The position numbers and the translations under genes were made by a program. Below are positions 20,255 to 63,835 of a stretch of DNA of 64,000 bases, one piece after another. A model generated the notes under the pieces. The model searched no databases, had not been told where the DNA came from, and saw only the letters and a list, made by a program, of their open reading frames with translations. Position 1 is the stretch's first letter. Each line of letters opens with the position of its first letter. Origin of the DNA: Prorocentrum cordatum (Eukaryota); the NCBI GenBank assembly GCA_963575745.1, contig CAUYUJ010000219.1:1-64000 (forward strand). Direction: 5' to 3'.

Positions 20255-20296
<42 letters not shown>

Positions 20297-20325
20297 CCAC
20301 TATCATAATCAGCAGCGTCATCAGT

Positions 20326-20381
<56 letters not shown>

Positions 20382-20543: not shown

Positions 20544-20577
<34 letters not shown>

Positions 20578-22187: not shown

Positions 22188-22393
22188 GAGGCCTAGACCG
22201 CAGGGGGCTCCCCGCTGGCCAGGCCGCCCCTGGCAAGAGCCTCGGCCGGCCGCGAGGGTGCAGCAGGGCAAGGGGCTCCTCGGCCTCGCACCGTCGGCGC
22301 GGTCAGCGGCGCCGGCAGGCGGGGCACTGAGGGTTGTGCTTGGCGACCCAACGCCAGGTGAGGTTGATGCGCGCGCCCTCGTGGGCGGGCATT

Positions 22394-22892: not shown

Positions 22893-22965
22893 TAGCCGTT
22901 CTGGGGCGAGCCAGGTGCTCGCTCTTGCGGGTGCAATCTTCAGAGCGGCGTGCCCCCGCGGGCCG

Positions 22966-24101
22966 ATGGCGAATGGAGTTGCAGGTGGCACGCGCGGTGC
23001 CAGCCAGGGTGGCGACCCCTGGACGTGCCGCTCGTGTGCTGATGGCTACGCCAACATGGCATGGCGCACGGAGCGCAGGCTCTGCAAGGCGGCGAGGCCG
23101 CCACGCGGCGCTGGCACGATCGGCGAGGCCATCAAGAAGGCCAAGGCGAAGGCCAAGGCCAAGGGGAAGGAGAAGGTCGTGGCGAAGCGCGTGCGCTTCG
23201 CCTCGGACGTGCCTGGGCCTGCCGCCGCCGCGGCCACGCCGGCGCCGTGGGCGCAGGGCGCGGCCAAGCGGGAGGCGGAGGAGCGGCCCAGCGGCAGCGG
23301 CGGCAAGGACGAGGAGGTTCGCCAGGCCCTCCTCCGCCACTTTGGCCCCAGGGAAGGCTGGTCGGCGGCCCTGGTCCAGGACTTCGGGGCCCTGGTGCCT
23401 GTGGTGGACGCGCCGCCGCCAGCGAAGCCCTTGGCAGGGAGGCGAAGATCAAGGGCCAGGTCAGCCGTGCCGAGGCAGCGCTGGTGGCCGTCCAGGAGGA
23501 GCAGGCGGCCGTCGCGGTCCGCGTGGCGGAGCAGGCGGACGTCCTCCAGAAGCGGCGCGACCAGCTGGAGGAGGTGGCCGAGGCTGCGCGCGCGAGGAAG
23601 CGGGCTGACCTGGAGCAGCACAAGGGGCCGTCGCCCATGGAGGTGGGCGAGCCTGTGGAGGCCGAGGACGGCCTGGGCAAGGTGCTGTTCAAGGGCCTCG
23701 AGGGCCTCGAGGCGGAGCGGGAGCGGGTCCTCTTGCTCGGGGAGGAGGGCGGCGCCCTGCTCGCGATGGCCGCGGAGGCCCGCAGCCTCGTGGAGAAGCT
23801 CGCCGCCGCCGACGCCCGCGCTCGTGAGGCAGCGGCGGCCGAGCGGGCCCGCGCTGCTGCAGCCGCGGCCGAGCGGGCCGCCGCGGCGCAGGAGGCCGCC
23901 CCCGCGGCTGATGGCAGTGATGACGGCGCTGATGGTTCTCCTGGGGACCGCAAGCGCGTCGGCGACCTCGACCTCGGCCCCGAGCTCGTCGGGCTCGACG
24001 CCGTGTTCGACGAGGTGGGCATGGAGGACGAGCAGCAGCGCGCAGCCTGGCGCGCAGCGCTGGCCAAGCGCCAGCGGGTGGCAGGCCCCGCCTCTGGGTA
24101 G
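22966..24101 (+). CDS. LINE-A ORF1 (RanBP2-like zinc finger + coiled coil), apparent 1-nt frameshift near 23435-23441
   Basis: ATG at 22966; WTCRSCADGYANMAWRTERRLCKAARP resembles a W-x-C-x2-C..N..C finger. Protein-like coiled-coil sequence (EAKIKGQVSRAEAALVAVQEEQ...) continues in the 23061-24101 frame to TAG. Confidence 0.7.
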
Positions 24102-24120
24102 CCGCCCGCGGGCGGCTAAC

Positions 24121-27100
24121 GTGGTGGAGCTGGTATCGGCCAACACCACCGCGTGGGGCTCGGCGCAGGCGCTGGTCGAGTGGCTGCACGACGACGTGGG
24201 GCGGCTGCCTGCGGTGCTCTGCCTCCAAGAGCATCGCCTCAAGGGCAAGCAGGCGATGGCCCGCGCGGCGGGCTGGACGCAGGCGCGCGGCTTCAGCTGG
24301 CATGGCCAGGCAGCGCTGCCGACGGGCTCAGGGCCGTTGGAGAGCTCGGGCGGAGTGGCCGTGGCCACGCTGCGGCCGTCGGCGGCCGCCGCCGCGCCAG
24401 GGCTCCCTGCCCATCGGTTCCAGGTGTGTGAGGTGAACCTGAGGTTCAGGGAGCCGTGCCGCGTCATCTCGGCCTACTGCATCACGAAGATAGGCAGGGC
24501 GAAGGAGAACATCGGGCTCCTGGCAGCGCTGCACGAGTTCGTGGGGCAGCTGGAGTCGCCGTGGGTCGTGATGGGCGACTGGAACATGGAGCCCGTGGAC
24601 GTCCGCGAGTGGGCGCGCAGCGCAGGCGGTGCGCTCGTGTGCCCAGAGGGGCCGACCTGCGGCTCGAAGGTCTTCGACTTCGCGGTGGTCAGCAGGGTCC
24701 TCACGGGCTTTGTGGACGTGGCCGAGGTGCTGCTGAGGGCGCCGACGAAGGACCACGTGCCGTTCAAGGTGGTGCTCCGCGGCGTAGCGCCAGATGCGAA
24801 GGTGCAGCGGCCGCTCTTCCCTGCCGCCTTCCCGCTGCCGCTGCCGCCGCCAGCGCGGCCAGCGCCGCTCGAGCGTGCCTTCTCGGCCTGGAGGCCTGAA
24901 GGAAGGCAGTCGATCGAGGAGGGCTGCCAGGAGTGGTTCGAGGCGGTCGAGGCCTACCTGATCGACCTCTACGAGATCGCGCCGCCCAGCCGCTGGGAGG
25001 GGCGCGCGGGCGGGCTTCGCACGCAGAGGGTCGTGATGGAGGTAGCCTGGAAGCAGGACTGCAAGAGGAGCGTCGGCGCTGCCTGCAGGCGCTGGATGTC
25101 GTTCGCGGCGGCATGCGCCCGCTGGCGCGCGCTGCAGGAGGCGGCGACTGGAGGGCGCTGTTGGGCGCCGCTGCGCAAGCAGCAGGAGGTTCTGATGGCG
25201 TTCGAGCTCGAGTGGCCAGAGGAGGGCCCGCTGGCAGGGCTGTCGGTGGCCCGCGTGATGAGCCTGCTCAGCTCCTCCTCGTGCCAGCTGACGGTGCAGT
25301 TCGTCCAGGAAGAGGCGAGACGGCGCTGGAGGCTGGACAAGCAGCGGGAGGCCGCGGAGTGGCGCGCCTGGGCCCAGGCCGCGGCCACCGAGAAGGGCGG
25401 CTCGGCGGCCTACCGCTTCATCAAGCAGGTCGCGGTGGTGCCCACGGAGGTGCTCGCGGGCGTGGACGGCAGCGACGACCTGCGCATGCCCGTCGCGGGC
25501 GAGGCTGCAGTGGCGGCGCTGCTGGAGGCGTGGCAGCCGCTCTGGGTCAAGCCGTCGCGGGCAGGCGAGGCAGCGCCTGAGAACTGGGACATCCAGGAGT
25601 CGGTGTTGCCGCCGCTGGAGCTTGAGGACCTCGAGCGCGTCCTGGGCACCTACCGCGAGGGGTGTGGCCTTGGGTGGGATAGGCTCCACCCGAAGCGGCT
25701 GCTGCGCCTCCCGCGGACCTATAGGCAGCGCTTCCCGGAGCTCCTCATGGCCTGGGAGCGGAAGCCTTCGCGGGAAGCGCTGTGGCAGCTGATCGTGGTG
25801 TTCATCCCCAAGGCCACTGGCGGCCAGCGGCCGATCGGCCTCACGGCCATCTGGCTGAGGGTCTGGAGCAGGCTGCGGCAGCCGCTGGTGGCCCGCTGGG
25901 AGGCCTCGCTGGAGAACCCTGCCTTCTGGGGCACGTCGGAGAGCCCGTGCGAGCGCGCGGGGGTGGTGCACAACCTCCTGGCGGCCTTCGCGCGCAGCAG
26001 AGGCCTCTCGGCGGTCACGGGCGTCACCGACCTGGCGAAGTTCTACGAGCACGTCAGCCACGAGGAGCTGCGCGTGCAGGCGGCCGCCGCGGAGTTCCCG
26101 CTCGCGCTGCTGCAGTGCTACTGCGTGTCGTACCGCACGCAGCGCCGCGTGTCCTGGCGCGGCTCGGTCTCCAAGCCGTTCGAGGCGAACGGCACCATCG
26201 TGGCGGGCTGCAGCGGCGCGGTCGAGCTGGCCAAGCTGCTGGTGCACACCCTCTTCGTGAAGATCGAGCGAGAGAACCCTGTGGTGCGCCTGCAGAATGT
26301 CGTCGACGACGCGCTGCTGCAGGCGGTCGGCGGCAGGGCGCAGGTGGCGCAGCAGCTCCCCAGGGCCATGGCGGCCCTCACGGAGGGCCTGGTCGCCAAG
26401 GGGCTGGTCATCTCGCAGGCGAAGACGGGCTACCTGGCGAACAGCGAGGACCTCGGCGACGAGCTGGACGGCCGCTGGGCGCACGGGCCGCTGGCCCGCT
26501 GGACTGGCGCCCGGTGCCTCGGCGGCGGCGCCGCTGATGGGCGCTGGAGGCGCGTGCGCGAGCAGGACGCTCGGCTTGGCCGCGCGGCGGAGGTCAGCGC
26601 GAGGGCGCGCCTGTTGCGCAGCGCAGGTGCGCAGGTGGGCCACATCCAGAGAGGCAGCCCCAGGGCCACTGCCATCTGGGGCTCCGCGGTGACGGGCCTC
26701 GCCTGTGGGAAGCTGCATGGCCTGCGGATCGCCGCCATGCGTGCGGAAGGCAGGTTGCCCATGGGCGCCAGCGTCGGCCTGCGGCTGCGGGCGATGCGCG
26801 GCGCGGCCTACCGCGACCCCTTCGTGGTGCATGCGGTGGAGGTGGCGCGCTCCTGGGGCATGACGCTGGAGACGGGCCTGCCCAGCGCCGCGGTGGTGCA
26901 GGAGTGCTGGCTTGGGGCGCAAGGCCTGCTCGACCTTTGCCGCCCCTGGGGGCAGTGCCGCGACCCTGCGCAGGCGTGCGTGCTGGCGCTGAGGCGGGTC
27001 GGCATCGAGATGGTGGCCTTCAATACCGTCATTGGCTGGCAGGCGCGTGTCCTCTCGCTGGAGTTCTACTCGCCTGGCATGCCGGCGCAGGCGGCGCGGG

Positions 27101-28971
27101 AGTCGGCGATGCTGGCCTCGGACGTGCTCGCGCTGAAGCGGCTGCGGGGGCCAGGAGCCTGGGCGTGGCCAGTGCACTGGAAGGGGCTCGAGCGCCTCCT
27201 CCACGCGCGCCGCCGCCCCGAGGGGCAGGCCGACGCCGAGGCCGCCGAGGGCGCAGGCTGCCAGGAGCCCGCGCCGCCGCAGCCGCACTGGCAGGCCCGC
27301 CACAGGCGAGCGCTCGCAGCGGTCCTCGGCGGCCCCCACTGGCCGCAGGAGCGCCTCTGGAAGGAGGGCAAGGCGCGCGACGGCCTGCGCCGCCTCTGCG
27401 GAGGCCGCGGCACGCTGTGGCACAGGGCCTTCGAGTGCGAGGCCTGGCAGATGCTGCGGCGGGATGCGCGCTCGCGGGACCTGCTGGAGGGGGCGCGGCT
27501 GGTGGCGCAGCGCGGGGACGCTGCGGCGGAGCTCTTCGCGCGGGCGCTGTGCCCCGACCCCGCCCTGGCCTTCCCCGCGACGGCCGACGCCGCGCTCGCG
27601 GCCCCGCGCTGGTTCGGAGTGCCGCCTGGCTCGAAGTTCGAGGGCAGGGTCTTCGTGGACGGCAGCGCCAGGTTTCCTGCGCTGCGCGGGGCCCGCCGCG
27701 CTGGCTGGGCGGTCGTGCAGATCGGCCTCAGCGGGGAGGTCATTGGCGGGATGCACGGCATCGTCCCGCGGGCGCACGGGCCCAAGCAGGAGGCCAGGGA
27801 CGGCGAGGACTACGCGTTCCACATGCTGGCCCAGTTCTGGTTGCCGTCGGCCGATGGCTCGGGCCTCGAGGTCTTCTGCGACTGCGCGGGCACGGTCGGC
27901 TTGGCGCTCTCGCAGGGCAAGGCCCTCGCGCCACTGCAGGCGCGCCGCCACCTCTGGCAGGAATGGTGGGCTGGGCCAGGCCCGACGGCCACGGTGCGGA
28001 AGGTCAAGGCGCACAAGGAGCTCTCGGCAGCTGCCACCTGGGAGGAGGAGCTCCTGATCAGGGGCAACAGGGCAGCTGACCTGTGGGCCAAGCGAGGCGC
28101 GGCGCTGTGGCAAATCTACGAGGAGAAGGTATGGTTCCTCCAGGCGTGTGCCTGGCGCGTGGAGGAGCTCGGGCGCTGGGTCGGCGAGCTGGCCGCCACC
28201 ATGGTGGACCGAGAGCAGCTGGACTCAGACGGGGTCGTGGGCACGGCCGACCTCGTCTACGACATCCCGCAGGAGGCGCTTGACGCGGCGGAGCAGGCCG
28301 ACGCGGAGGTGGCGGCGCTGGCGCTCGAGGCCGACCTCGAGCTCGGCCAGACGCCTGGCGCTGCTGCTGGGGCTGCTGCTGGAGAGGAGCATGACCAGGC
28401 GCCCGCCGCTGCCGCGGCTGCCGAGCTGGCGGAGGCGGCTGTGGCCGCTCCCGAGCTGAAGGCCGCGATTGCAGGGGCTGGAGTGGCGCGGGAGGTTCGT
28501 GGGCACTGCATCGTCGTCTCGCGCCTCGAGAATGGAGATGGTGCCGTGGCCTGGTGCATGAAGTGTGGTTGCCGATTCTGGAAGCGGTCCCCTCCTGCTG
28601 GGACAGGCCTGCTGGGCAGCTGCAAGGGACGGCCAGCCCCATGAGAAAGGGCGGCGGAGGCGCGGCGGCTCCTGATGCGCCTCCAGGAGCCCAAGAGCAA
28701 GGCCAGGCTCTCGGCCCCGCAGCCGCCCACGCTGGAGGAGCAGGCGCGGCTCGCGGCGGTGCTCCGCGACGGCGCAGGCGGCGAGGCAGGCGCAGGCGCT
28801 CCCGCTGGTGCAGGGAGGCCGCCGCGCTGGGGGCTGCGGCCCGTCGTGGCGGACGCCTGGCAGGCGGCGGAGCTCCACGGCTTCGCCTCGCCCACCGCTG
28901 CGGCCCGCTGGGCGAGGGCTCGCGTGGCGGCGGGCAAGGAGTCGCCCTTCGGCGACGGTGGCGCGGACTGA
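24121..28971 (+). CDS. LINE-A ORF2: AP endonuclease - reverse transcriptase - RNase H - C-terminal Cys/His domain (one in-frame TGA at 28642-28644)
   Basis: APE: VSANTT, CLQEH, SSGGVAV, VMGDWN, FDFAVVS, DHVP. RT: FIPKATGGQRPIGL, DLAKFYEHV, IVAGCSGA, NVVDD. RNH: VFVDGS, RDGEDYA, VFCDC, KVKAH, GNRAADLWAKRGA. C-terminus: WCMKCG. The same frame stays open past the TGA to 28971. Confidence 0.92.
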
Positions 28972-29052
28972 CAGCCGCGCTGACGGCACCTGGTTTAGCC
29001 TGCCGGCAGGGCGCCAGGGGGCCGAACAAAAAAATGGCCCAAAATGGCCTCG

Positions 29053-29186
29053 TCCTCCTCCTCCTCCTCCTCCTCCTCCTCCTCCTCCTCCTCCTCCTCC
29101 TCCTCCCCCTCCTCCTCCGCCTCCTCCTCCTCCTCCTCCTCCTCCTCCTCCTCTCCTCCTCCGCACTCCTCCTCCCTCCCCGCCGC

Positions 29187-29217
<31 letters not shown>

Positions 29218-29280
29218 GCCGCATCAGCATCAGCATCATCAGCATCAGCATCAGCATCAGCATCAGCATCAGCATCATCA

Positions 29281-29335
<55 letters not shown>

Positions 29336-29409
29336 CATCATCATCATCATCATCATCATCATCGTCATCATCGTCATCATCATCACCGCCGCCGCCGCCA
29401 CCATGGTCG

Positions 29410-29474
<65 letters not shown>

Positions 29475-29519
29475 GTAACCATCGTCATCATCATTAGCAG
29501 CATCATCAGCATCAGCAGC

Positions 29520-29577
<58 letters not shown>

Positions 29578-29757
29578 GGCAGCATCATCATCACCACCGC
29601 CGCCGCCACCACCATGGTCATCATCATCATCAACAACATCATCATCATCAGTATCGTCATGATCAACATCAGCATCATCATCATTATTATCATCAGCATC
29701 ATCATCATCAATATCATCATCAGCAGCGTCATCATGTTCAACAACCTAATCGTCATA

Positions 29758-29791
<34 letters not shown>

Positions 29792-30214
29792 ACAACATCA
29801 TCATCATCAATCATCCTCGTCATCGCCATCGTCATCGTAATCAAAAACGTCGTCGTCATCGTCAGCATCATCATCATCGTCATCGTCAGCATCATCAGCA
29901 TCATCATCATCCCCGACGTCGTCGTCGTGGTCACCATCATCATCCTCATCATCACCATCATCCTCATCCTCATTCTCACCATCTTCATCATCCTCATCTT
30001 CACCATCATTCTCATCATCATGGCCAGTATCGTCATCATTCTCATGCTCATCATCATCCTCCCCATCCTCATCATCATCAGCATCATCAGTCCAAGCATC
30101 CGCATCGTCATCATCATCAGCATCATCAGCATCATCATCAGCAACTTCATCATCATCGGCAGCAGCAGCAACATCATCATCATCAGTTTCCTCATCCTCA
30201 TCATCCAGCTCATG

Positions 30215-30254
<40 letters not shown>

Positions 30255-30550
30255 GCATCATCATCATAATCATCATCATCATAAGATTCATCATCATCGG
30301 CAGCAGCATCATCATGGTCACCATCATCATCGTCCTCATCATCATCATCGTCATCCTCAGCATCATCGTCATCATCATCATCATCATCATCACCGTCGTC
30401 GTCGTCTTTAGTATCCTCCTCCTAATCCTCCTCATCCTCCTCATCATCCTTATCATCATCATCATCATCACCAGCCTCATGATCCACATCATCATCAGGA
30501 CCAACATCATCATCAGCAACACCACCGTCATTCTCACCATCATCATCATC

Positions 30551-30584
<34 letters not shown>

Positions 30585-30773
30585 TCGTCATCATAATCAT
30601 CATCCTCGTCCTCATCCTCGTCGTCATCATCATTATCATCACCATCATCATCTATCACCATCATCATCAACATCATCATCTCCACCACCCATCATCATCA
30701 TCATCATCATCATCAACATCATCATCATCATCAGCATCATCACAATCATCAGCAGCAAGTTCATCATCATCAA

Positions 30774-30804
<31 letters not shown>

Positions 30805-31056
30805 GTCATCATCATCATCATCATCATCAGGAGCGGCTGCAGCATCAGCATCCTCAGTATCATCCTCCTCCTCCTCATCCCCTTCACCATCATCCTCATC
30901 ATCATCAGAATCATCAGAATCATCAGCAGCATCATCATCGTCATCCTCAGCATCATCATTATCATCAGCATCACCATCATCATCCTCGTCCTTACCCTCA
31001 TCCTCATCCTCGTCGTCATCAGCATCATCCTTCTCATCATCATACTCACCATCACC

Positions 31057-31090
<34 letters not shown>

Positions 31091-31493
31091 CCATCATCAT
31101 CCGGAGCAGTATCACCACCACAAACACCACCACCACCACCCTTCTTCCTCCCCGCCCGCGCAGGCCGAGCGCTGACCGCCCTCCCAGGGCGAGCGGCACC
31201 TGCACGTGCCCTTCGCGGGGCACGCGGTGCTGGAAGTGCTTCTGCAGCATCCCCTGCGGCGGCCGGGCCCGCGGCTCCCCGCGCACCCCGCGCCCGCACG
31301 GGGCGGGCCCTGGCCGTCCCCACGGGAGCGACGACGATGATGACGACGATGATGACGATGATGACGATGAGGATGACGATGACGACGATGACGATGATGA
31401 TGATAATGTTGATGATGATAATGATGATGATGATGATGATGATGACGACGACGATGATGACGATGACGACGATGACGATGACGATGATGACGG

Positions 31494-31527
<34 letters not shown>

Positions 31528-31771
31528 AAGGTTGATGATGATGATGACGATTACGATGATGATGATGATGATGATAATGATGATGATGATCATGATGACG
31601 ATTATGATGATGATGATGATGATGATGATGCTCAAGAGGATGACGATTATGATGATGATGCTGATGATGATGATGACGATGATGGCGATGATGATGACGA
31701 CGACGGTGATAATGATGATGACAATGATGACAATGATGATGATGACGACGACGGTGATAATGATGATGACA

Positions 31772-31820
<49 letters not shown>

Positions 31821-31830
31821 CCATCATCAT
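29053..31830. repeat. (CCT)n, (CAT)n field, ~190-bp unique GC-rich core, then inverted (GAT)n field
   Basis: Direct reading; strand orientation of the ATC repeat flips across ~31140-31330. Confidence 0.93.
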
Positions 31831-45951: not shown

Positions 45952-46051
45952 NNNNNNNNNNNNNNNNNNNNNNNNNNNNNNNNNNNNNNNNNNNNNNNNN
46001 NNNNNNNNNNNNNNNNNNNNNNNNNNNNNNNNNNNNNNNNNNNNNNNNNNN
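45952..46051. other. Assembly gap (100 N)
   Basis: Run of n. Confidence 1.
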
Positions 46052-51420: not shown

Positions 51421-52676
51421 TCGCTGCGTCGCAGGTGGCGGATACTACAAGCACCCCAATGGCGCAATTCGTTTCTGTGTCCCAGGGCCCAGCACGTATA
51501 CCAGAATGGGTGCAAGGTCCCCTGGAACTTTGGACCTCGGAGTGGTTCGATCGATTCCCGTGCGTGCGACCCTTCCGAAGCTGATGATCGGCTATGAGAA
51601 TAAGACTCGCATTCAGATCGACGGCAACTCCAAGACACCGACGGTGATGGCGGCCCAATGCAACAGCAAGGTGATGACGGCAGGCGTCGGCGACGGCGCG
51701 ACGGGCAGCAACGGGGCCACGTGCAAGGACGACTCGATGCACGTCGACGGCGGCACAGTCAGCACGAAGAACGATGGGCAGACGATCAACAATGACAAGA
51801 CGAAGCACGCGCTGGGCACAAGCTTCATGATAGGCGACACGAAGGGCACAGACGGAAAGCAGCACACCGACGACAAGCAGAACATCGACGACACCGACGG
51901 CGGCAAGCAGGACATCGACGACACCGTCGGCGGGAAGCAGGACACATCGACGACACCGTCGGCGGCAACCCCTCGATGACGTCGGGACTCGACGGCGTGG
52001 CGGAGATTATCATTGGCATGATTGACATCATGGAAGAGCTGCTGTCGAACCACGGCGGCGCCCCCGCCCCGAAATTCCAGGGACTCGCGGGCCAAGAGAC
52101 TGATGATTCATCGGTGGCAGGTCCGCTCTCTAAGAAGCCGAGGCCGCCCCCTAGGCCGCCCCCGAAGTTCCAGGGACGCGGCCCAGATCCTTTTTTTTAT
52201 CGAAGTCAGCTCAACCGCCTTCTAAGAAACCAAGGCCGCCCCCTGGGCAGCCCCCGAAGTTCCAGTGACGCGGCCCAGAGGCTGTTCTTTTAATATCGAA
52301 GTCAGCTCAGCCGCCTTGTAAGGGGCCGAAGCCGCCCTCTGTGCCGCCTCCCCCAAGCCTTTTAGATCGCGTGCGCGTTCCCGTCCACGTGCTCTCACCC
52401 GACGTGTTTCACGCAATTGCATCCTCGGCCCCACCCTCGCCAAAGAGTCGCGTGGAGCCAAAATCTGTGATCCCAGGTCAGACGCCCAAACTAAAGGCGT
52501 GCGGTCATCTTTGCGGTTTGTAGAATTCGTTTTGGGACTTCTGCGCCTGATCGGGCTTCAAGATCAAAGAAAGGGGACGTGTGTGCATGTGTATACATGC
52601 ACATACATACCTATGTATATGTATGTATGTGTGACGTTGGAGCAAGGCGCAGCCAGCTCATAATTTGATCACAATC

Positions 52677-55600
52677 TTAATGTAGTTCTCGATGTTCCGG
52701 GCGCCGTAGTTGCAGCCTGGAGCCAAGCAGCGCAAACTTCTCGAAGAAGAGTCGGAGTGTCTTGCTGCGCGGGGGGGCAAGGTGACGAACAGCATGATAA
52801 GCCAAGAACGCCGCGACCAGCCGGCGCGCATTTGTGTGGGAAGGCGCCAGGAGAAGCAACCTGATAGGAAGACTAGGTAATGCCCAGGCCGTGCGCTGGA
52901 ATGCATCAGAGGGGTTCGGCGTCCCGGCGGCCAATGCCATCGACCAGAGGGGAGTGCACAGTACGTAGTGTCCAAGATCGCCCAGACATCCCGTACATCC
53001 GAAAGCGAAAGGCACGACCGCGTCCAGGTGGAGGCGCGAACTGGTTGTCCATGCATTGGCCCATGTCTTAAGAATAGCTGTTGACCACGCCGGTGACAGC
53101 GACTGCATGGGAAGACGAACGCCAGGAACATCCACGAGGCCACGCGGCACGCTCGGCCACACCGTGTGCGAGCGGCGTGAAATGAGCGCCGGAATAGAAT
53201 CTGAGTAGATGGTGAGCTTGGGTTACGATAGGTGGTAAAATACGCCCTAAGATGCGATGCCTGGGTAATCCTACCGAGGCGTCGTGTAGAACCAAGGCGA
53301 TGGGGGTGGAGCCCCAGTGGCTAGGAGAGACTACCCCGGCTGCAAAGTCGACCACAGAGAGGTGCTCCGCGGCAACAAAGCGCAGCATGTCCAGATTGTC
53401 TTGCCAGGAAGCGACTGCGGTCAAAGATGCCCGCACCAACCTTGAAATAAGATCAACGAGCATGCTGTCGATGTTCACCGAGCCCCAAATATGGAGGCAG
53501 AGCGTATCCTCGCGAGAGAAGGAAGTGGGTGGAATGTGAAGAACACGATGAAGGGCATACAATTCTTGACGAAGCAGGTGCTTGGGAAGAAGGGAAAGTT
53601 GTCCGATTGATCCTAGAGTAGGGAACGCATGGACGTCGCAAAGAATTGCAGCCGGAGAAGGGGAGCACCACCAGCAGCAATCGCGGAGACACGCGAGTGA
53701 TATTTCTCAGCAGGCGCGCGCCACGTGAGGTTACCAACGATAGTCCCAAGATGTGCGCCGTGAAATTTTGCGACTGGGGCGACTGACGCGTCGATCCAAT
53801 CGGGGAGGCACCCGGTAATCCAAGAACGAATCGTCGCTTCGAGGTCGTCGGACCAAGGGCGAACAGGAACCAAATAACACTTCCGAAATTTGAGAGTGAA
53901 CCCTGCCAGAGGCCTTGCAAACTTGAAGATGCTCGCCATTGTAGGAAGGTGTTCCAACGATTTCACTGCACTGCCAACGTCGTCCGCACAGGCGCGTACA
54001 ATCCCCTTGTTATGCTGGATGATGGCGAGCTCGAACCAATTCAAGAAAGGGTCGAAGGCCAGGGCGAAGCAGAAGCATGTCAGAGGGCACCCCTTGATAA
54101 CTCCCCGCATAATGAGAAATAAGGTTGTTACTTTCGCTCCAGCGCGGCCGACTGCAACGACTTACGCGCGAGTGGCACGAATAACATGCACCAGGCCAAG
54201 CGGCGCTCGAGAGGCAGAAGCAACGAGAAACAACCACTAGTGAATCATCGAAGGGAACGCGTTCCCGAAGTCAGTGGAGAAAAGGAACGGGCAGTTGAGG
54301 GCTGGCTGCATAGCGTACGCTCTGCCGTGAGAATCAAGATCGACGATGTAGTCCAAAAAATTTCGGCCGGCCGCGAATCCATTCTGTAGACGAGAGGCTT
54401 TCTCTGCGACTGCATGCTTGATGTACGAGTGGGTCGACCCGCGTATGATCTTAACGTCGGAGCTCTTGATCCCAATCGGTCTGGTCGCCATGGGCTCCCG
54501 CACGATTGCACGGTCGTCGTCTTCCTCGGTGCCCTTCGGGATGAAGATGGCGAGGGTGTCATTGAAGCCGGCTGGAAGGTGCAAGCCGGAAGATATCCAG
54601 GCTCCCACTTGATGGAGAAGGGTCTATGCTTGAGGTCCAGCACGAAGCCAAACACAATAAGGGATGCCATCGATATCTGGCGCCGTATGCCGAACGCGAC
54701 GGAGAAATCTGTAAATGTATACAGAGGAAGGTGGGCCGCTGTAGTCGTGCATGGTGAAGTCCGAGGAAAACCGCGCGGCAACCGAGCGGGCGAGATCCTC
54801 ATCGATGGGAGGCACTGTGGAGAATACCGGCTCCCAAGCGTGTGCGAGCGTCCGCGTCTGCTCGTACTCCTCCTCGATGTTCCTGTCGCCGCTGCGGATA
54901 GCTGTGATGTGGCACTGTTCTCCGAAAGGTGTCCAGATCTTCCGGAGTCGGTCGAAGGCGGTGCGTCGGCGACGACTCGCGCTCCATGGAGAAGAGGATG
55001 TCCGAGATTCATGAAATCGTCGCTCCAAGGCTGCGGACCTGATGGCGTTGTACAAGGATGAGAACGCCGACGGATCAAGTAAGCGAACACGGCCGTTCTC
55101 AAGGGCGAGATGTTGCCGAGCAAGCACTGCTCCTCCCAACAGGGTGAACGCGAGCTTGGTGTCATTGTGCCAGACAGCCCGCGCGACAGACGAGCACACG
55201 GAGGCGCGAGCATCGGGAACAGCAGCAGGAATAGCGAGAAGTAGATGTCTGGTCATTCGCGTCGCAACCCGAATAAGGCGTTTGAACTCCGCAAGCCGCA
55301 GTGGCACCGAAAGAGACGCGAGGTCAGTGGCATCCAAGAGCAATGTAATACGCTCAGAAAACAATCGATGATCAACAAAAAATCGAAGAATAGGACGAAG
55401 ATGCTGTGGAAGTTGGGGACGGTAGGAAAAGAGGAAGGCAATAGTGGCGTGGTCGCTGATCTCCTGTTGATGGCAATAGAAGGGGTCTCGCAAGAGCTTC
55501 GCGTGCAGCCCGAGCTGAAGGACGAGCCATGGGGGCGAGGCAACGTAGAGACGATCCAGCCGGCCAGTAGATGAAGGAGTAGAGTTTACATGCGTGTCGA

Positions 55601-56272
55601 GGGATTCGTGGACCTCCGTGAGCTGATCCAGCATGCGCTGCCACGCAGCCTGGTGAGGGCCAGCTGCCGGGACCCTGTGGTGCGAGAGCGTGGATGAGCC
55701 AGGATCGGAGAAGGGTCGTCGGAAATCGCCAGGGGCGAGAAAGTTGGAATCGCCAGCAACTGCCATGAAGTTGTTGTGCGGGTCAGCGTGTACTGCAGCA
55801 GCATCGCGTGCCATCATCGTCGAGACGCGCTGTACGTCCGCAGATGTCAAGGCATAGTTATGTATATTCCAATGCACCCACGTGTAGTCGCCGATGGAAG
55901 CAATTACTCGTAGAATGCGCCTGGGGACTGGAGAAAAATATGCAAATTCAGCGACGGAGCCAGGAAGAGGAGCCGGGGCGAGCGGTACGACAGATCCTTC
56001 GTCTTCCTTGATGCTGGCAGCGCCGTCGGGGGTAAATGAGTGGAACATCTTGTAGTGGCCGAGAAGCGGAGACAATAAGCGAGACACCTTTTCAGGAGTG
56101 CCGTGCACTTCTTGGAGAGCAGCAACATGTTGAACACGATCGGGAGAAAGAAGAAGACTTTGGAGTAGACGGGCTTTCAAAAGACCACGTTGGGGAGATG
56201 ACGGTGAAGAGCACGAGCGTTCCAAGAGACGAAGCCAACCGAAGCGGATGATGATCTCCAGGGGAGCAGCAT
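52677..56272 (-). pseudogene. LINE-C ORF2 (APE-RT-zinc knuckle), several frameshifts and stops
   Basis: VSWNARAL, ALQEVH, VAGDSN, RLDRLYV, SDHATI (APE). PDIDGIPY, FIPKG..TRPI, QNGF, TDFGNAFPSM, RGVIKGCPL, ACADDV (RT). GCTGCLGDLGHYVLC. The motifs are spread over different frames. Confidence 0.9.
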
Positions 56273-56276
56273 TCTG

Positions 56277-57233
56277 CTACCCAGACCACGTGACCTGATA
56301 TACGGGTCGTCGGGCGCGGCGCTCAAACTCAGCTTGAATAGCCTCTTTGTCAACTTGTGCCACAGCCACCTGTTCGAGGTTCCACTGCACGTGGGACGGG
56401 TTGTCGCCATTGCGTGGTTCCAATTGCGCCATCGGGACGCCGTCGAATTTGATGACGCCGTCAACCTTCTTCCAATTGAAATGCTTGTTCGGGTACAGGT
56501 GCTCAAGAGATCGGATGAGTCGCTTGCCATCGCGTTCCCGTTTCTGCTGACAAGGGTTCTTGTCTTAATCGATGTGGAAGGTCGAAAGAGCGGCACCAGA
56601 TACAGTCTGATATATCGGGAAAGGCCTCCATTCGCCGTCACTGGATTTAAGCATCTCGCGGGCTTTCCGAGCTCGATTTCTGGAACCCCCAGCGTTGCCC
56701 TTGAACTGCACTGTGAAGCGCCTGGAAGTGTCAGGGCCGAGGAGAACAGCCCTGTCATCAGACCCACAATCAGCATCATTGAGCCAAGAACGGATGGCAT
56801 TATTGATTTCGATCCTGGTCGTGAGCTCCGGCACGTTGAGGCGCAGGATCGCGCTGTTTACTTTCCGGTTGAACTCCGAAAGGTCGAGGGTGTCCTTGAT
56901 GGGCACGGTGGCCCCCGCCACCGCGACAGCACGCTGCAAGTCTGCAACGATCTTCCTCTGCTCCTCCTGCGCGCGCGCGATCTCAGCCTGAGCCCGGCGA
57001 ACAGCAGAAAGCTCTTTCTCCACGACCTGGAAGCGACGCTCGGCCTTCTCCTCCGTCGCCTTGACCAGCTTGATAGTGGCAGCCATGGACTTCTCGGCGA
57101 AGCCTTTGATGGTCTTGTCCACGTGCTCCAGGATTTCTGTCCGGAAGGCCTCGAAGGGGTCGTCTTCGTCATCGATTGCCGCCTCGGCATCGCCGGAAGC
57201 AAGAGCGCGACCACGCTTGACAGCGGAAGCCAT
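56277..57233 (-). pseudogene. LINE-C ORF1 (coiled-coil protein) with a premature TAA at 56567-56565
   Basis: ATG at 57233 (MASAVKRGRA...), heptad-rich segment; the same frame continues after the TAA (DKNPCQQKRERDGKRLIRSLEHLYP...VTWSG*) to TAG at 56279-56277, just before the ORF2 ATG. Confidence 0.8.
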
Positions 57234-57320
57234 CGCAGCAAGGCGTAAGTTGAATATGCAATTGTAATTGTATCTTAGCTGATGGCGGAAATTTCCTCGT
57301 GAGGGAAAATGGAATAGCTC

Positions 57321-57387
57321 TGGCTTGACCACTTGAGCTCTTGAGCCAAAATGGCTTGAGCCAAAATGGCTTGAGCCAAAGTGGCTA
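57321..57387 (-). other. Tandem relict dinoflagellate spliced leaders (DinoSL)
   Basis: Minus strand: TAG-CCACTTTGGCTCAAG-CCATTTTGGCTCAAG-CCATTTTGGCTCAAG-AGCTCAAG-TGGTCAAG, versus DinoSL DCCGTAGCCATTTTGGCTCAAG. Confidence 0.95.
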
Positions 57388-58165
57388 TGTATGTGTATAT
57401 ATATATAGATCCTTCTACATATATGTGTACGGACATATCTGGAACAAAACGACAACTATGGCATATCTCCAACTACCAATATCAAAATATCATTTCTTCC
57501 AGCCCACATTGCGCTAGATGTCTCACATTCTCGCATGTCCGGTTGATTTTACCCAGCCCTCCGAATTTCCGGTTGAAATCTGGAATTCAATATCAGCTGT
57601 AAATATCATATTTGCTTAAATTGATCGTTCTACGCTCTGGGTCTTTGACGGTCCCAAGGCCCGATAAGGGTTACAGGGGCCGAAAATGGCGAAACATGTT
57701 TTTCATGACCCGACGGGGTCTGGGACGTGAGCCAGGCCCGCCCACAGAGGTCAGAAAGGGAGTCCGAGAGGGCCCCAGGAGACCCCCCAAGACGGCCGAA
57801 CGCGGTGCACCGAACCCGCCCCCTCGGTGCATCAGTGGGGACTGGCGCACACCGAGCGGAGGAGGGTCGATGGAAGTGGGCGTGGACAGGAGGTGGAGGA
57901 GAAGGAGGCGGAGGAGGAGGAGGAGGAGGAGGAGGAGGAGGGAGGAGGAGCAGAAGGGAGAGGAGGAGGAGGAAGAGGAAAGAGGAGGAGGAGGAGGAGG
58001 TGGAGGAGGAGGAGCAGGAGGAGGAGCAGGAGCAGCAGGAGGAGGAGCAGGAGGAGGAGGAGGAGGAGGAGGAGGAGGAGGAGGAGGAGGAGGAGGGAGG
58101 TCTGGAGTCTGGAGAAAGGTTGGCAGGTCGACGCCCGCCTGCATGCAGGAGGGCAGGAGGAGCGC

Positions 58166-60156
58166 TCAGAGCGACGTGACCCGGCTCCGGCAGCCCTGGA
58201 GGCCCGCCTGCACGTGGTTCTGCGCGCACGGCCCAGGCCGCCTGGCGGCGGCGGGCAGCGACGGCGGCCTGCGCGCCGCGGGCTCGAAGAAGGGCGCCTC
58301 GGGCTCTCCGCTGCTGTGGGAGGACGGCTGCGGGCTGCTCTCGCGGGGCAGCACCTCCGGCTGCGCCGCCTGGGCCATCGACGGCGGGAGCGCCAGGGAC
58401 GCCCGGGCGCCCTCCACCGCCGCCGCAACGGCCTCGGGCGCCACCTGCGCCCTCGCGGGCCGCCGGCCTATCCCGCCCTCGGCGGACGGGCCTGCGGCGG
58501 CCTGGCGCATGCTGGTCGCGCGAACGCCTGGCTTGCAGTCCAGGTCCCAGGTGCCGTTCTCGTTCGCCTTGAGCACTCTTGCCGGAATCCACCTCTGGTG
58601 CGTGGCCCCGAAATACTCGACCACGTCGCCCACGGCATAGGCGGCGTGCGTGGCCGCTTCACCCGGGCCTGCGGCCGCTGGGCAGCCTGGCGGCGCCGCC
58701 GCCGGCGTGATCAGCTCCCGGCCGATGCCCAGAAGCCCGTCCCACATCGTCTGGGCGGAAACCCGCACCTGCGCGGCGTGCATCTGGACGCGCAGCGCGC
58801 GCTCGCCTCCGATCCCCGTGCTGCACTGGTCCTCCATGGAGGCCTCCCCGCCGCCTCTGAACAGCGGTGGGTCTGCCACGGAGGACTCTCCGCCGCAGGC
58901 GCTGCCGGCGCCGCCGCCAGGGCCCTTGGGCGCTGCGCGGCCGTCGCCCAGCGGACCCGCCGCGCCGGCTGGCTGCAGCGCCGCCTGCCTGCCCAGCGCG
59001 GCCGCGCCCAGGCGGAGCCTCTCCAGAGCCCCCGAGGCCGACCTGGAGAGTGCCTGCGGGAACGTGGAGGCGAAGTCCATCGCAGCGGCCCACGCCTCGC
59101 CGGCGGCCAGGTACTCGGCCAGGGCGGCGGCGTTGTGCCGCGCGTCGCCGCAGGCCGGGCAGCGCGGGCGGGCGGCAAGCTCCCTCTTGGCGCAGCCGAA
59201 GCACACGCTGGCGCTGCACAGCGGGCACACGTGGTTGATTGCGCTGGAAGGCGCCCGGCAGAAGTGGCACTCGGAGCTGCGCCACGCGTCTGGAGGACTG
59301 GGGTCGACGGCGCTTTCCGAGGCCCCGGTGTCCACCTCGCCCAGCCTCCCGATGACAGGGTTCTCCACGGCGGCCAGCAGGGCTGCACTCGAGGCCTGCA
59401 GGGCCGCCTCCGGGGACCAGGCGGCTGCGATTCGCGACACCTGCTGGGTGATGGTTACGTCGTGGGCTTCGTGCCTGCAGTGGGGGCACTCCGGCCTCGG
59501 CAGCCTTCCCAGGCACTCGAAGCACACAGTGTGATGGCACTGCGGGCACACGAAGGCGAAGGCGCCGGAGGCCTGGAAGCAGACCACGCAGCTGGTGAGG
59601 CGGTCGTCGGAGGGGTCCAGCACGGGCACACTCTCCCAGCCCTCGGTGGCGATCTGCACCGAGCCCACAGCGTCCACCACGCCCGCAGCCAGCCTCTGGA
59701 ACTCGACCTCGATGCTGCCGAGGCCCTCCTCGAAGTCTTTCCACAGCAGCAGTGGCTCCGTGGCATCGCTGTGCGCGGCAGTGAACTCGACGGGGTTGAA
59801 CTGCCGGGGCCGGGAGCTCTCCGCGACGGGCGCCGGGGCCGCCGACGGCTCGCGGAACAGCTCGTGCCGCAGCGCGCGGCCGGCGGAGAGGCGGTGGTGG
59901 CGCTTCGGCATGAGGAGCTGCCGAACGAGGTCGCGCGCCACCGCCGTGGGGGCCTTGCGGCCGATTCCTGCGACTTCCCTGACCTTCTGGAAGAGACCGG
60001 AGAACATGTCCGCGTCCCACAGGGGCAGGTCGCCGCGAAGCAGCTGCTGGTGAAGCAGCCGCCCGTGCTTGTCCACGAACGCGTACTCGTTGGCCAGGAG
60101 GAAGACGAGCACTGCACCAGCGGCCCACAGGTCGACCTTCTCGTCGTACCCGGCGC
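58166..60156 (-). CDS. Host Ser/Thr protein kinase gene, large exon: kinase subdomains IX-XI, two RING-like fingers, SH3/Tudor-like domain
   Basis: GYDEKVDLWAAG...ARDLVRQLL...RLSAGRALRH; CVVC..CPQCHHTVCFEC..CPHC; CHFC..CPLCSASVCFGC..CPAC; YAVGDVVEYFGATHQRWIPARV. It may be spliced at 58207 rather than stopping at 58166. Confidence 0.85.
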
Positions 60157-60159
60157 TTT

Positions 60160-60486
60160 TCGGGCGGGTGGTAATGGGGGTGACTTACGTGGGCGGCGAA
60201 AACACAAGGGCGCTGAAGGGGCCCTCTAGGGCTACCTTGGGAGCCAGCAGGGCTTCAAAGGGGCCCTACAGGGCCCCTTTTGGGCCCTTTTCTTCACCCC
60301 CCATTTAGGTCCCCCCACTATAGTCGGGGTTGATTGGAGAGAACACGCAAGAGGACACGAAACCCTTCCGAGGGCCACATTGCCATAGGAATGTCGAAGG
60401 CACGGGTCGCGAAAGACAGGACACAAGGGTACCATTGAATTGGCAAGGTCGACTACTGATCAGCCTCGACTGCACCACCCGCCCGA
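60160..60486. mobile_element. Intron-forming MITE (5-bp TSD) with a nested Tc1-type MITE (60321-60472)
   Basis: TIR tcgggcgggtggt / accacccgcccga; gcttt at 60155-60159 and 60487-60491. It separates in-frame kinase exons. Confidence 0.85.
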
Positions 60487-60558
60487 GCTTTTGGCGGGCA
60501 GCAGGTGCATCTCTGGCGCCATGAAGGCCGGCGTGCCCACCTTGTCCTTGAGCAGGGC
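60487..60558 (-). CDS. Kinase exon, subdomain VIII
   Basis: ag|ALLKDKVGTPAFMAPEMHLLPAKS; the exact donor is uncertain. Confidence 0.85.
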
Positions 60559-60679
60559 CTCGGCCTCTGGCCGATCCTCGCGCGGTCATGCCACCCGATC
60601 GCGTGCTCCGACCGCGGGCCTGACAACGATGGCTACCACGCTGATCGCAGATCGATCACGCGTTCCAGCTCGGACGATC

Positions 60680-60815
60680 GAGGAGGAGGAGGAGGAAGAG
60701 GAGGAGGAGGAGGAGGAGGACGGGGAGGAGGAGGAGGAGGAGGAGGAGGAGGAGGAGGAGGAGGGAGCAGGTGGGGGAGGAGGAGAAGGGGAGGAGGGGA
60801 GGAGGAGGAGCAGGA

Positions 60816-60856
<41 letters not shown>

Positions 60857-61233
60857 AGCAGCAGCAGCAGCCAGCAGCAGCAGCAGCAGGTGGGGGAGGA
60901 GGAGGAGGGTGGAGGAGGAGGAGGAGGAGGAGGACGAGGAGGAGGAGGAGGAGGAGAGGAGGAGGAGGAGGAGGAGGAGGGGGAGGAGGAGAAGGAGAAA
61001 GAGGAGGAGGAGAAGGTGGGGGGAGGAGGAGGAGGAGGAGGAGGAGGAGGAGAGGAGGAGGAGGAGGAGGAGAGGAGGAGGGAGGAGGAGGAGGAGGAGG
61101 AGGAGGAGGAGGGAGGAGGAGGAGGAGGAGGAGGAGGAGGAGGAGGAGGAGGAGGAGGAGGAGAGGAGGGGGAGGAGGAGAGGAGGAGGAGGAGAGGAGG
61201 ACGAGGAGGAGGAGGAGGAGGAGGAGGAGGAGG
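60680..61233. repeat. (GAG)n intronic microsatellite
   Basis: Direct reading. Confidence 0.95.
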
Positions 61234-61298
61234 TGATAACGCCGAACCGACCACGTGATTGGCGATATCGCGTGATCAACAGACACCGAGGGTAGGGC

Positions 61299-61418
61299 GT
61301 TGTGCTGCATGCGCACGGCGAGGCCGAAATCCCCGAGCTTCACGCGCGCCTGCTCGCTCGCGGCGCCGCCCCCCACGAGCATGGCGTTCTCCGGCTTCAC
61401 GTCGCGGTGGCAGATGGC
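61299..61418 (-). CDS. Kinase exon, subdomains VIb-VII
   Basis: ag|AICHRDVKPENAMLVGGGAASEQARVKLGDFGLAVRMQHN|gc; 120 nt, phase 0-0. Upstream exons (I-VIa) were not found in the window. Confidence 0.9.
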
Positions 61419-61871
61419 CTTCAAGCGCAGGAGCCCCACAAATCCTCTCCTCCCTCCTCTTTCCTCCCTCCTCCTCCTCCCTCCTCCTCCTCCCTCCCCC
61501 CCTTCTCTCCCCCTCCCCTCCCTCTTCCTCCTCCTCCTCCTCCTCCTCCTCCTCCTCCTCCTCCTCCTCCGACTGCTCTTGTCTCACGTGGAGAGGAGCA
61601 GGTCACCCTTGAATGGACGACCTCTCACCTTGACCTCGAGGCTGAGGGCCTCTCAGATCATCAGGTCTTGCTCAGGGCTGGAAATCATCTGGCTGTCATT
61701 GCGGCCTCAGAGGCCGCTGAGCGCTCCTGGGGGCTTTCGGCCCGTTTCGATCCCGGGACCGACTTTTCGGATGCGCAGACCGCCCTAATTCGGCGCGCCA
61801 GGAGGAGGAGGAGGAGGAGGAGGAGGAGGAGGAGGAGGAGGGGGAGGAGGAGGAAGAGGAGGGGGAGGGGG

Positions 61872-62013
<142 letters not shown>

Positions 62014-62079
62014 GATGGTGATGATGATGGTGATGATGATGATGATGAGGAGGAGGAGGAAGAGGAGATCAAGTTCTGG

Positions 62080-63835
62080 AGGGGGCCGATATGTTGGGCC
62101 CCGTTGTATGAGTTGTTGTGCTAGAAGAACGTTCCAGGTTGGCATGAGCATCAGAAGAATTGTTTGAGAGCAATGATTTCGAATGACTTCTGGAGTCAAG
62201 AGCGCATCAACTCGCACGCCAAGGAAGCTTCATGGGAATGCCAGCTGTGTCTTGGGGCGCCAGGTACTACTTTCCACCGGCGGTTTGAGTGCCCTGCCCA
62301 TGAAGTTTGGCGACGCGAATATCTTGACGACTGGGTTCGCTTAGCCTCATCACGGATTGCTTGTTTATCGTTGGACTACCAGGAGCTGTTCTGCCGTGGT
62401 CTCTTTCCTGATCCTGGTCGTTTTGTGTCGGCCTGATCGGATTGGGGAGGATCCCTGCACCCAGCGGATCAACTGGCCAAGGGAGGGCATCTTTCTCCAG
62501 GCGGACCAGCATGTGTACACTGACAGCGAAGGTTACGAGATGCTGTGGCCATCCTTGCGTGTTGCAGGGTGGTCGGTTGCAGCGTCAGACTGCAATGGTG
62601 AAGTGGTTTCAGCTCTTTATGGAGTGGTGCCTCTTACCGAGGCGCCAGATCAGATTGCAAGAGATGGTGAAGATTCTACTGTATTGATGCTGTCGAGGAA
62701 TTCTGCTGCGGCCCACGGGGCTACAGTGCATGTGCATTGTTCTGGTATTCTGGGTTGTTCTCGGTGGCTTGGAGGCTCGTACCTGTCTTGGGCTTCGGAG
62801 CAGAGGGTCCACTGGTGGGGCGAGATCGGTGACCGTATGCAGGGAGTCAAGTTTGAGAAAGTGAAATCTCACATGCCCTATTATGCGGTTCGCAAGGAAA
62901 GATTTGCCATCGTGACTGGAGAGGAAGCCAGGAGGCGGATCGGCTTGCGAAAGAAGGAGCTCAACAGTTCCGAGCGGATGACGGTGATCTTATGTTGTTG
63001 GAAGGCCTGCACGAGATTGCGAAGCGGGTCGCCAGGTTCGGGAGTTTGCAGCAGGCCGTCTTGTCCGATGTGGAGTACAGAGACCACGTGGGCTTCGAAT
63101 GGATGAGTAAAATTGAACGCGTTCCTCATGATAGGCTTCCTATTCCTGCGTGTTGCGACTGTGAAGCCCCTGTGGAGTCGAACCCCGAAGTCTTGGAGCC
63201 TGATGAGGTCGTCTCGGAGTCTTGAGTGTGGGATGGGCACTCTATTCGGAAGGCGGCGGTTTTTGACGACAGGGTCCAGGTTGACTCGATGATGTGTTGC
63301 GTTAGCTGCGGCAGCAATGTGTCTTGGGAACATCGGGTTCATTCGAAGTCGAGGTGTAAACTCAAAGTGATCTGCAGACCCAAAACGGTTACGGATGGTC
63401 GGAATATGTCCAGGATCGTGAGGGGTCTGCACCCTTTAGCCTCGTCGAGTCTCAAGGTTCAGGAGGCCGGTGGCCTGAAACAGTTCGAGAAAGACTTGTG
63501 GCGGCCCTTCCTTGAGGACTCGGCCGAGTCCCGTAGGTTGAGGCCCAGGCTGCAGCTCGCCCGTCAAATTCGAGGTTTCAAACGAGGAGCGAGGCCCCTG
63601 GGATTGACCTCGTTCGAGGTCTGGCCCTTGTTGGCCTGCCCGAGGAGGAAGCGAGGGCCTTGGGGCGACAGGCCCGCGAGCGGGCCCGCCCTCGTTCGGT
63701 GGAGGAGGATGAGCTCCTCCCTGATGGGCCATGACGGCCCGCGCCCGTTTTGGCGCCGCCCGACGCCCCCCTCGCGTCATGGGTTTTTGTCCTCTCTGCG
63801 CATGCGAATGAGGTAGCACCCTTTCTGCGGTAGAA
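62080..63835 (+). pseudogene. LINE-D: decayed 5'-truncated RNase H-bearing LINE fragment
   Basis: CQLCLGAPGTTFHRRFEC, VYTDSEG, RVAGWSV, QIARDGED, EKVKSH, CCVSCG, RIVRGLHP; colinear with the LINE-A/B 3' halves; stops and frameshifts; flanked by (GAT)n/(GAG)n. Confidence 0.85.

Follow-up and report, generated by a model that had tools for sequence, protein, structure and literature searches.

Hosts that trans-splice their mRNAs can harbour non-long-terminal-repeat (non-LTR) retrotransposons with a 5′ end linked to spliced-leader (SL) sequence. SLACS, CRE and CZAR of trypanosomatids and NeSL-1 of C. elegans insert site-specifically into SL RNA genes and have a restriction-like endonuclease. Here we examined a 64-kb stretch of Prorocentrum cordatum DNA (contig CAUYUJ010000219.1, positions 1 to 64,000, referred to as the window), in which a long interspersed nuclear element (LINE) between 52622 and 57396 begins with a stack of dinoflagellate SL (DinoSL) units. 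Like the elements named above, it is a non-LTR element of a trans-splicing host with SL sequence at its 5′ end. On the other hand, it is of the APE type, it lies in a TA/CA microsatellite without an SL-gene flank, and its SL exon stands in the relic register expected from trans-splicing. An earlier account made from the letters of the window only (the sequence-only reading) had set the element apart from SLACS, CRE and NeSL, and this distinction stands, as neither insertion into an SL gene nor a restriction-like endonuclease was found.

Dinoflagellate genomes are full of retrogenes tagged with SL relics, and these relict-SL retrogenes ("mRNA recycling") are the other system that comes close. 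The 15-nt truncation at the AG of the SL, which is the signature of a relict SL, is credited to Slamovits & Keeling 2008 in the available text of PMC3229502 and PMC7245778. As in these retrogenes, we found a full SL followed by AG-truncated 15-nt units that decay inward, and the cycle proposed for them, in which trans-splicing is followed by reverse transcription, reintegration and re-splicing, would apply here too (PMC3229502, PMC7245778, PMC5585692 and PMC12014239, in the parts available). The difference is that the recycled "gene" is here the retrotransposon itself, with open reading frame (ORF) 1, endonuclease and reverse transcriptase (RT), and that target-site duplications put the SL at the exact 5′ terminus. 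The machinery behind the SL-tagged retrogenes is given as unknown or only presumed in the accessible portions of PMC5585692, PMC6050394 and PMC12014239, where the only part given to LINEs or LTR elements is that of a presumed RT source. Song 2017 reported an enrichment of the gene ontology term "RNA-dependent DNA replication" among relict-bearing genes, and the accessible part of that paper describes no SL-headed LINEs. Likewise, no description of LINEs beginning with DinoSL was found in the full-text literature, a search that excludes supplements and subscription journals.

L1Tc and ingi are also LINEs of a polycistronic, SL trans-splicing host, which have to define their own 5′ end and are co-transcribed with host sequence. 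They possess the Pr77 internal promoter and a hepatitis delta virus-like 5′ ribozyme; in L1Tc the promoter gives unspliced transcripts and the ribozyme cuts the 5′ end, according to the available text of PMC1874656, PMC3185411 and PMC3383444, whereas the dinoflagellate clade has the host SL at its 5′ end and gave no Rfam ribozyme match. With human L1 (8C8J, 8SXT, 8UW3) and the R2 RT (9NL2) the window family shares the layout of ORF1 and ORF2, the N-terminal EEP endonuclease, the RT, the C-terminal Cys/His motif, target-site duplications and 5′ truncation; it differs in being very divergent, without poly(A), with a short 5′ untranslated region (UTR) and with an ORF1 of no recognisable family. 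Two known phenomena, LINE retrotransposition and the recycling of relict SLs, come together here.

The spliced-leader stack and the identity of the element

All coordinates of the element refer to the minus strand and are read 5′ to 3′. The features of its 5′ end and the two copies of the duplication are the following:

57386..57396, minus strand: 5′ copy of the target-site duplication, ACACATACATA, 11 bp, from an 11-mer count in the window
57370..57385, minus strand: outermost SL unit, G (57385) followed by CCACTTTGGCTCAAG (57384-57370, 1 mismatch)
57340..57369, minus strand: two perfect 15-nt DinoSL relic units, CCATTTTGGCTCAAG (57369-57355) and CCATTTTGGCTCAAG (57354-57340)
57324..57339, minus strand: two shortened, decayed SL-like units, AGCTCAAG (57339-57332) and TGGTCAAG (57331-57324)
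57234..57323, minus strand: unique 5′ UTR, 90 nt
52622..52632, minus strand: 3′ copy of the target-site duplication, ACACATACATA, from the same 11-mer count

The 11-mer ACACATACATA occurs exactly twice in the 64 kb, once at each end of the element, with 0.01 occurrences expected. Thus, it is a real target-site duplication despite the low complexity of the flank, which is TA/CA-rich and reads ...TATATATAT on the 5′ side of the repeat. Allowing up to 2 mismatches, the SL 15-mer has three matches in the window, all of them in the stack (0.08 expected), and none of 100 shuffles reached three; no SL copy was found in the window besides the stack. Tandem Repeats Finder reported two periods, one of 15 nt (3.1 copies, 96% match) and one of 8 nt (2.9 copies). 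Tandem 15-nt CCATTTTGGCTCAAG units, cut at the AG of the SL and directly upstream of a coding region, are the pattern of a relict retrocopy. The sequence-only reading had placed one near-perfect, two perfect and then decayed units inside the 11-bp repeat, with about 150 nt up to the ATG of ORF1; the exact coordinates and the counts bear out this arrangement, and the distance from the first SL unit to the ATG (57233) is 151 nt.

Since the outermost unit is without the DCCGTA head of the 22-nt leader, it was read as a 5′-truncated SL. Its G and the preceding A of the flank give ...ATAG/CCA (the slash follows the AG), and the AG appears to have been rebuilt from the last A of the flank and the G of the SL. 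We also considered TACATAG before this unit as a mutated DCCGTAG head, and rejected it, as an 11-mer unique to both ends speaks for a duplication followed by a 5′-truncated SL.

An E-value scan of 52300-57800 against Rfam gave no match to a ribozyme or to any other RNA family within the element, although divergent ribozymes could escape such a scan, and the 5′ UTR matched no Rfam family, ribozymes included, at E ≤ 1. Sub-threshold miRNA-like matches on the (TATG)n flank were taken as chance.

The coding part and the 3′ end of the element comprise:

56277..57233, minus strand: ORF1, 318 codons and the TAG terminator, with a premature TAA at 56565-56567
52677..56296, minus strand: ORF2, degenerate, delimited by homology to P0003, with terminator TAA at 52677-52679
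55449..56272, minus strand: APE-like (EEP) endonuclease, with motifs SWNARAL, LQEVHG, GDSNF and SDH
53847..54695, minus strand: RT domain (GVIKGCPLT..., RACADDVG)
52956..53003, minus strand: C-terminal Cys/His motif FGCTGCLGDLGHYVLC, after the conserved LKTWANAWTT
52633..52676, minus strand: 3′ UTR, 44 nt

Direct profile searches with the window copy gave little. No relevant Pfam family was found on eight raw ORFs at E ≤ 0.01, and the sole match on the read-through of ORF2 was Exo_endo_phos (E = 3.5, profile positions 10-225). A match of ORF1 to ALIX_LYPXL_bnd (Pfam, E = 0.0088) was far below the cut-off of that family and was discarded. The RT of the window matched the R2 RT in a phmmer search against PDB (E = 2e-5). 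In a large protein collection, seven homologues with 30–50% identity carry PF00078, and two of them also PF03372; when four homologues were scanned with Pfam, RVT_1 was above its cut-off in all four, and Exo_endo_phos exceeded its 24.5-bit cut-off in P0006 (26.6 bits) and P0007 (43.5 bits). In the alignment of ORF2 with its homologues (A1) the endonuclease motifs are conserved, and the A1 profile matched the R2 RT at 5.8e-16 and human L1 ORF2p at about 1e-11 to 2e-11. The motif LKTWANAWTT...FGCxxC...HYxxC is common to P0003, P0004, P0006 and P0007.

A non-LTR RT, an N-terminal EEP endonuclease and a target-site duplication around the whole unit are thus present, and by these comparisons the element is a very divergent APE-type LINE. 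The sequence-only reading had named it a LINE, and RT, ORF1 homology and target-site duplication all agree with that name. Self-BLAST at the DNA and protein levels showed no second copy in the 64 kb, and no relative was found among the viral contigs searched with A1.

Leaders at the 5′ ends of related LINEs

As relatives we used 69 metagenome loci (262,444 nt in total) that were fetched with the ORF2 alignment. The perfect 15-mer occurs 11 times in 9 of the 69 loci, where 0.0005 occurrences are expected, and in 8 of these 9 it has the same orientation as the LINE. The sequence upstream of the projected ORF2 start measures at least 900 nt in 18 loci, ten of which hold the ORF2 N-terminus. In six of the ten (L002, L010, L014, L016, L059 and L066) an SL that deviates from the 21-mer by no more than 1 mismatch was found on the sense strand, 1.1–1.4 kb upstream of ORF2, while L007 has a 5′-truncated SL, TGGCTCAAG, after ...GATACATA. 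A full or 5′-truncated DinoSL therefore starts 7 of the 10 loci that hold the 5′ region of the element. The contig of L009 begins inside the 5′ UTR, so it is uninformative on the SL. The sequence-only reading had named, as an observation that would speak against it, other copies lacking SL relics; at clade level, on these related loci, 7 of 10 proved to be SL-headed, which favours that reading.

The leaders of the relatives are arranged in several ways. L010 and L016 have a full SL and one perfect 15-nt relic, with the DCCGTAG head on the outermost unit only, and L002 and L014 have a single SL. In L059 the SL is followed by the shortened, decayed relics CCAAACTCAAG and CCTTAAG, and in L066 by CATGCTCAAG; these resemble the AGCTCAAG and TGGTCAAG of the window. 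Older relics are generally shortened and not merely mutated, the T-run being typically lost (57324-57339 in the window, 134-151 in L059, 2139-2148 in L066). Truncated CTCAAG relics in transcriptomes, for which a TG acceptor was proposed, are mentioned in the available text of PMC12014239.

In L066, a 17-bp duplication, ACAAAAAAAC[T/G]ACCACT (16/17 identical), abuts base 1 of the SL and restarts right after the ...GTGAAAA 3′ end of the element. Open ORF1 and ORF2 frames are found behind a perfect SL in L002, and behind the SL in L016 as far as the contig runs. The distance from the SL to the ATG of ORF1 is 87–285 nt in L002, L010, L014, L016, L059 and the window, and the 3′ ends of the relatives read GGGAA(A)n, with 2–7 A, directly before a TA-rich flank.

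Nearly all insertions of the clade are in microsatellite-like sequence of the TA, CA or CATA type, with (TA)n before the SL in L010, L014 and L059. Such sites were seen in the 5′ flanks of L002, L007, L010, L014, L017, L045, L047/L048 and L059, as well as at 57386-57440 and 52560-52632 of the window, which suggests a preference of the endonuclease or of priming for these repeats.

Other SL sites adjoin some of the loci. A second unit headed by a full DinoSL is located at 2258-3002 of L017, about 110 nt past the end of the ORF2 of the LINE and behind ATATATACATG; its protein is weakly similar to the upstream, ORF1-like ORF of L014 (34% over 87 amino acids, E = 2e-4), and L017 looks like a head-to-tail LINE insertion. 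In L025 (2798-3528) and in L061 (minus strand), a full DinoSL adjoins LINE fragments and heads other ORFs; these are probably ordinary retrogenes inserted beside LINEs.

Three DNA contig runs of one study, one of which contained 0.26 of the words, matched the window. The SL stack is present in at least 36 contigs of X1 and in at least 10 of X3, which diverge directly after 57340, so the stack is a relic signature common to many loci. Other contigs match the body of the element at about 81–93% identity, indicating that the run concerned contains diverged members of the family. The source of the window may itself be among these runs, which are not independent support. Among the matches listed, no piece of the X1 and X3 contigs joins the unique 5′ UTR to an SL in another copy.

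Probable renewal of the leader and competing explanations

Between the SL-bearing elements, the window copy included, the RT identity is 31–52% in most pairs, and 67% between L059 and L066 over a short stretch. The outer SLs nevertheless match in 20–21 of 21 bases, although the 5′ UTRs are unalike, and L059 and L066 combine an intact outer SL with decayed inner relics. Deep divergence of the RT together with near-perfect SLs indicates that the SL was resupplied repeatedly by the host, that is, by recurrent trans-splicing along the lineages. The RNA template of the element was very probably a host-processed, trans-spliced mRNA, and the SL relics would have accumulated through the following cycle.

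A genomic copy would be transcribed, most likely inside a longer sense transcript because a kinase gene of the same orientation has its end about 275 nt further upstream. The spliceosome would then join the 22-nt DinoSL in trans to an AG that precedes ORF1, by which the 5′ end would be both defined and capped. The capped RNA would be translated, and target-primed reverse transcription at a nicked TA/CA-rich target would give a new copy that begins with the SL, enclosed by a target-site duplication. The integrated SL contains an AG of its own (CCGTAG/CCA), which could serve as the acceptor in the following round, and a 15-nt relic would then be left behind a fresh SL. For the window copy this would amount to at least 3 rounds, from its three good units, in addition to two older, shortened relics, and decay would have followed. 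Read-through transcription, the use of the internal AG in this lineage and the dispensability of an own promoter are parts of this cycle that we infer. As a count of generations the stack is at best a lower bound, because splicing at the AG of the terminal CAAG could exchange the SL and leave no relic (a single SL is present in L002 and L014), and the count is made uncertain by replication slippage, which could change the number of units.

Several observations weigh against recurrent trans-splicing as the origin of these ends. Among the three good units of the window, it is the outermost that has the most mutations, and this unit has no SL head, so the expected gradient, in which younger units are cleaner, is seen only between units 1–3 and units 4–5. 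L001 and L029 hold the 5′ region and have no SL within 5 mismatches, and no SL was found at the expected place in the other 8 of the 18 loci, which begin no earlier than ORF2 residue 96. A 5′ truncation is plain to see in L047 and L048, two relatives of L007 in which the microsatellite flank abuts the truncated UTR. Clean duplications were found only in the window copy and L066; L002 and L014 have short shared words and 9–12 extra bases before the SL without a clean duplication, and no shared flanking words were seen in L010 and L016. The relatives are from dinoflagellates other than that of the window, and the 5′ ends compared with it were from outside its own family. The argument from a co-oriented upstream gene is a single case, and the trans-splicing of the element's RNA is itself deduced from DNA.

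Nearly all dinoflagellate mRNAs carry DinoSL, according to the available text of PMC5585692 and PMC12014239, and the mRNA of a LINE could have been trans-spliced like any other and copied passively, with the element using a promoter of its own and trans-splicing being incidental. Song et al. proposed a possible promoter function for the TTT(G) of the relicts (PMC6050394, in the part available), which would suit this explanation. We regard it as rather unlikely, since the 5′ UTRs are short (87–285 nt) and unalike between lineages, and since a promoter at base 1 of the element would produce transcripts that already bear the SL, from which no new relic is expected, yet L010, L016 and the window do have relic stacks. 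Slippage is common in short tandem arrays, and the number of units might instead reflect replication slippage or unequal exchange of the 15-nt repeat, for which one acquisition of the SL suffices. The identity of units 2 and 3 of the window would fit, as would the shortened units of the window, L059 and L066, which show that indels occur in the arrays. This explanation seems improbable to us given that the boundary of the units is exactly at the AG/CCA of the SL and that the DCCGTAG head is restricted to the outermost unit in L010 and L016. Such a pattern is predicted by re-splicing, the accepted reading for relict SLs in the available text of PMC3229502, although slippage is compatible with it as well.

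The presence of an SL at the 5′ end in several lineages could also mean that it is an inherited part of the 5′ UTR, acquired once by an ancestor and copied without further trans-splicing. This is very unlikely, as SLs matching in 20–21 of 21 bases would have to persist beside unalike 5′ UTRs and RTs of 31–52% identity in most pairs, and as the outer SL is intact over decayed inner relics in L059 and L066. Finally, SL sequence directly at the junction might be explained by insertion within or beside an SL RNA gene or an existing array of SL relics, or by a template switch of the RT onto free SL RNA. We give this explanation hardly any credence. The duplication encloses the stack, the window has no further SL copy, and the flanks are CATA/TA and CA-type microsatellites, not SL genes; neither the remainder of an SL exon nor an intron was found in the flanks of the window copy. 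An intron-like GT follows the SL at none of the 9 SL sites of the relatives, nor at the window stack. The endonuclease is N-terminal and of the EEP/APE type, not restriction-enzyme-like. A template switch onto SL RNA would add the intron portion too and would not give units that are cut at the internal AG. The view of the sequence-only reading that neither an SL gene nor an SL array is the source of the relics is thus retained, on the grounds of the microsatellite flanks, the lack of a GT after the SL and the APE-type endonuclease.

SL-headed LINEs directly inside target-site duplications, found in lineages whose RT identity is only about a third to a half, are direct DNA evidence that LINE mRNA is trans-spliced and retrotransposed at full length, and they are a concrete candidate for the engine behind the retrogenes. 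With recurrent trans-splicing as the preferred origin of the leaders, the "promoter problem" of LINEs would be solved otherwise than by internal promoters or 5′ ribozymes, including those of L1Tc in the trans-splicing trypanosomes, and the relic stack would be a molecular record of successive rounds that could be calibrated against the RT phylogeny. More tentatively, and with doubts that outweigh our confidence, we propose a deeply diverged LINE clade, distributed across dinoflagellates, that has no promoter or ribozyme, relies on read-through transcription and on excision and capping by DinoSL, restores a ready acceptor with the AG of the SL in every new copy, keeps in the stack a lower-bound count of its rounds and provides the microsatellite-targeting machinery of retrogenes. 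If true, these same elements would be the long-sought machinery of the massive "recycling" of SL-tagged retrogenes.

Decay of the window copy and its neighbourhood

Nearly the whole element is one minus-strand frame broken by stops. ORF1 aligned by tblastn with the ORF preceding ORF2 in ten related loci (L001, L002, L007, L009, L010, L016 and others) at 24–33% identity; the alignments with L001 (residues 25-318) and L002 (27-317) cross the premature stop, and the C-terminus ...VTWSG is kept in the relatives. ORF1 has no recognisable family: its extended frame (291 amino acids, translated SL units included) gave no match in a word-index search limited to near lengths, and its intact 222-amino-acid part matched only unnamed clusters of the ESM Atlas, at up to 0.91.

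By homology, ORF2 starts at 56296, where the window has AGG and the relatives have ATG; there is no ATG before 56272, and the two ORFs overlap at the end of ORF1. It aligned with the intact 1216-amino-acid homologue P0003 in four tblastn pieces covering residues 2-1200 at 41–54% identity, with three frameshifts near 56190, 53661 and 53150-53220. Its read-through from 56564 has 11 in-frame stops (7 TAG, 2 TAA and 2 TGA), the first of which is the terminator of ORF1 itself. At the first frameshift, one X1 contig has an extra G behind window position 56191, and may represent another copy or allele that is in frame there. No A-run was found at the 3′ end of the window copy, where a poly(A) or simple-repeat tail was looked for; such tails are not universal among LINEs.

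The window copy is structurally complete but dead. The description "full-length" in the sequence-only reading accordingly holds for the structure and not for the reading frames, as ORF1 has one premature stop and ORF2 has 11 in-frame stops and 3 frameshifts. The intact ORFs of an autonomous, potentially active copy are absent.

Upstream of the element lies one host gene:

57671..61421, minus strand: host gene recognised by Pkinase matches, co-oriented with the element and not part of it

Its protein-kinase exons, at about 61421-61296 and 60160-59855, matched Pkinase with E = 1.7e-5 and 7.4e-5 in two minus-strand frames, covering profile positions 117-152 and 170-263. The long open frame that follows these exons ends near 57671, about 275 nt before the 5′ end of the LINE. 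It contains a Cys/His-rich stretch, CVVCF...CPQCHHTVCFECL...CPHCRHE, which by eye looks like a RING-type zinc finger. On either side of the kinase gene, at 57700-58200 and 61500-62600, there are long tracts of homopolymeric codons, which read as P, S, L, E, G or I according to the frame; in this low-complexity DNA both strands show long ORFs that are spurious.

Tandem repeats of 9/12/15 nt form a very large array at 19550-31830 of the window, with hundreds of registers at 60–85% identity. The array has an inverted partner of about 500 nt at 31330-31830 and holds an open frame of 2370 codons on the plus strand (21532-28641). Two runs of 100 N, at 19451-19550 and 45952-46051, are scaffold gaps, and the overall G+C content of the window is 61%.

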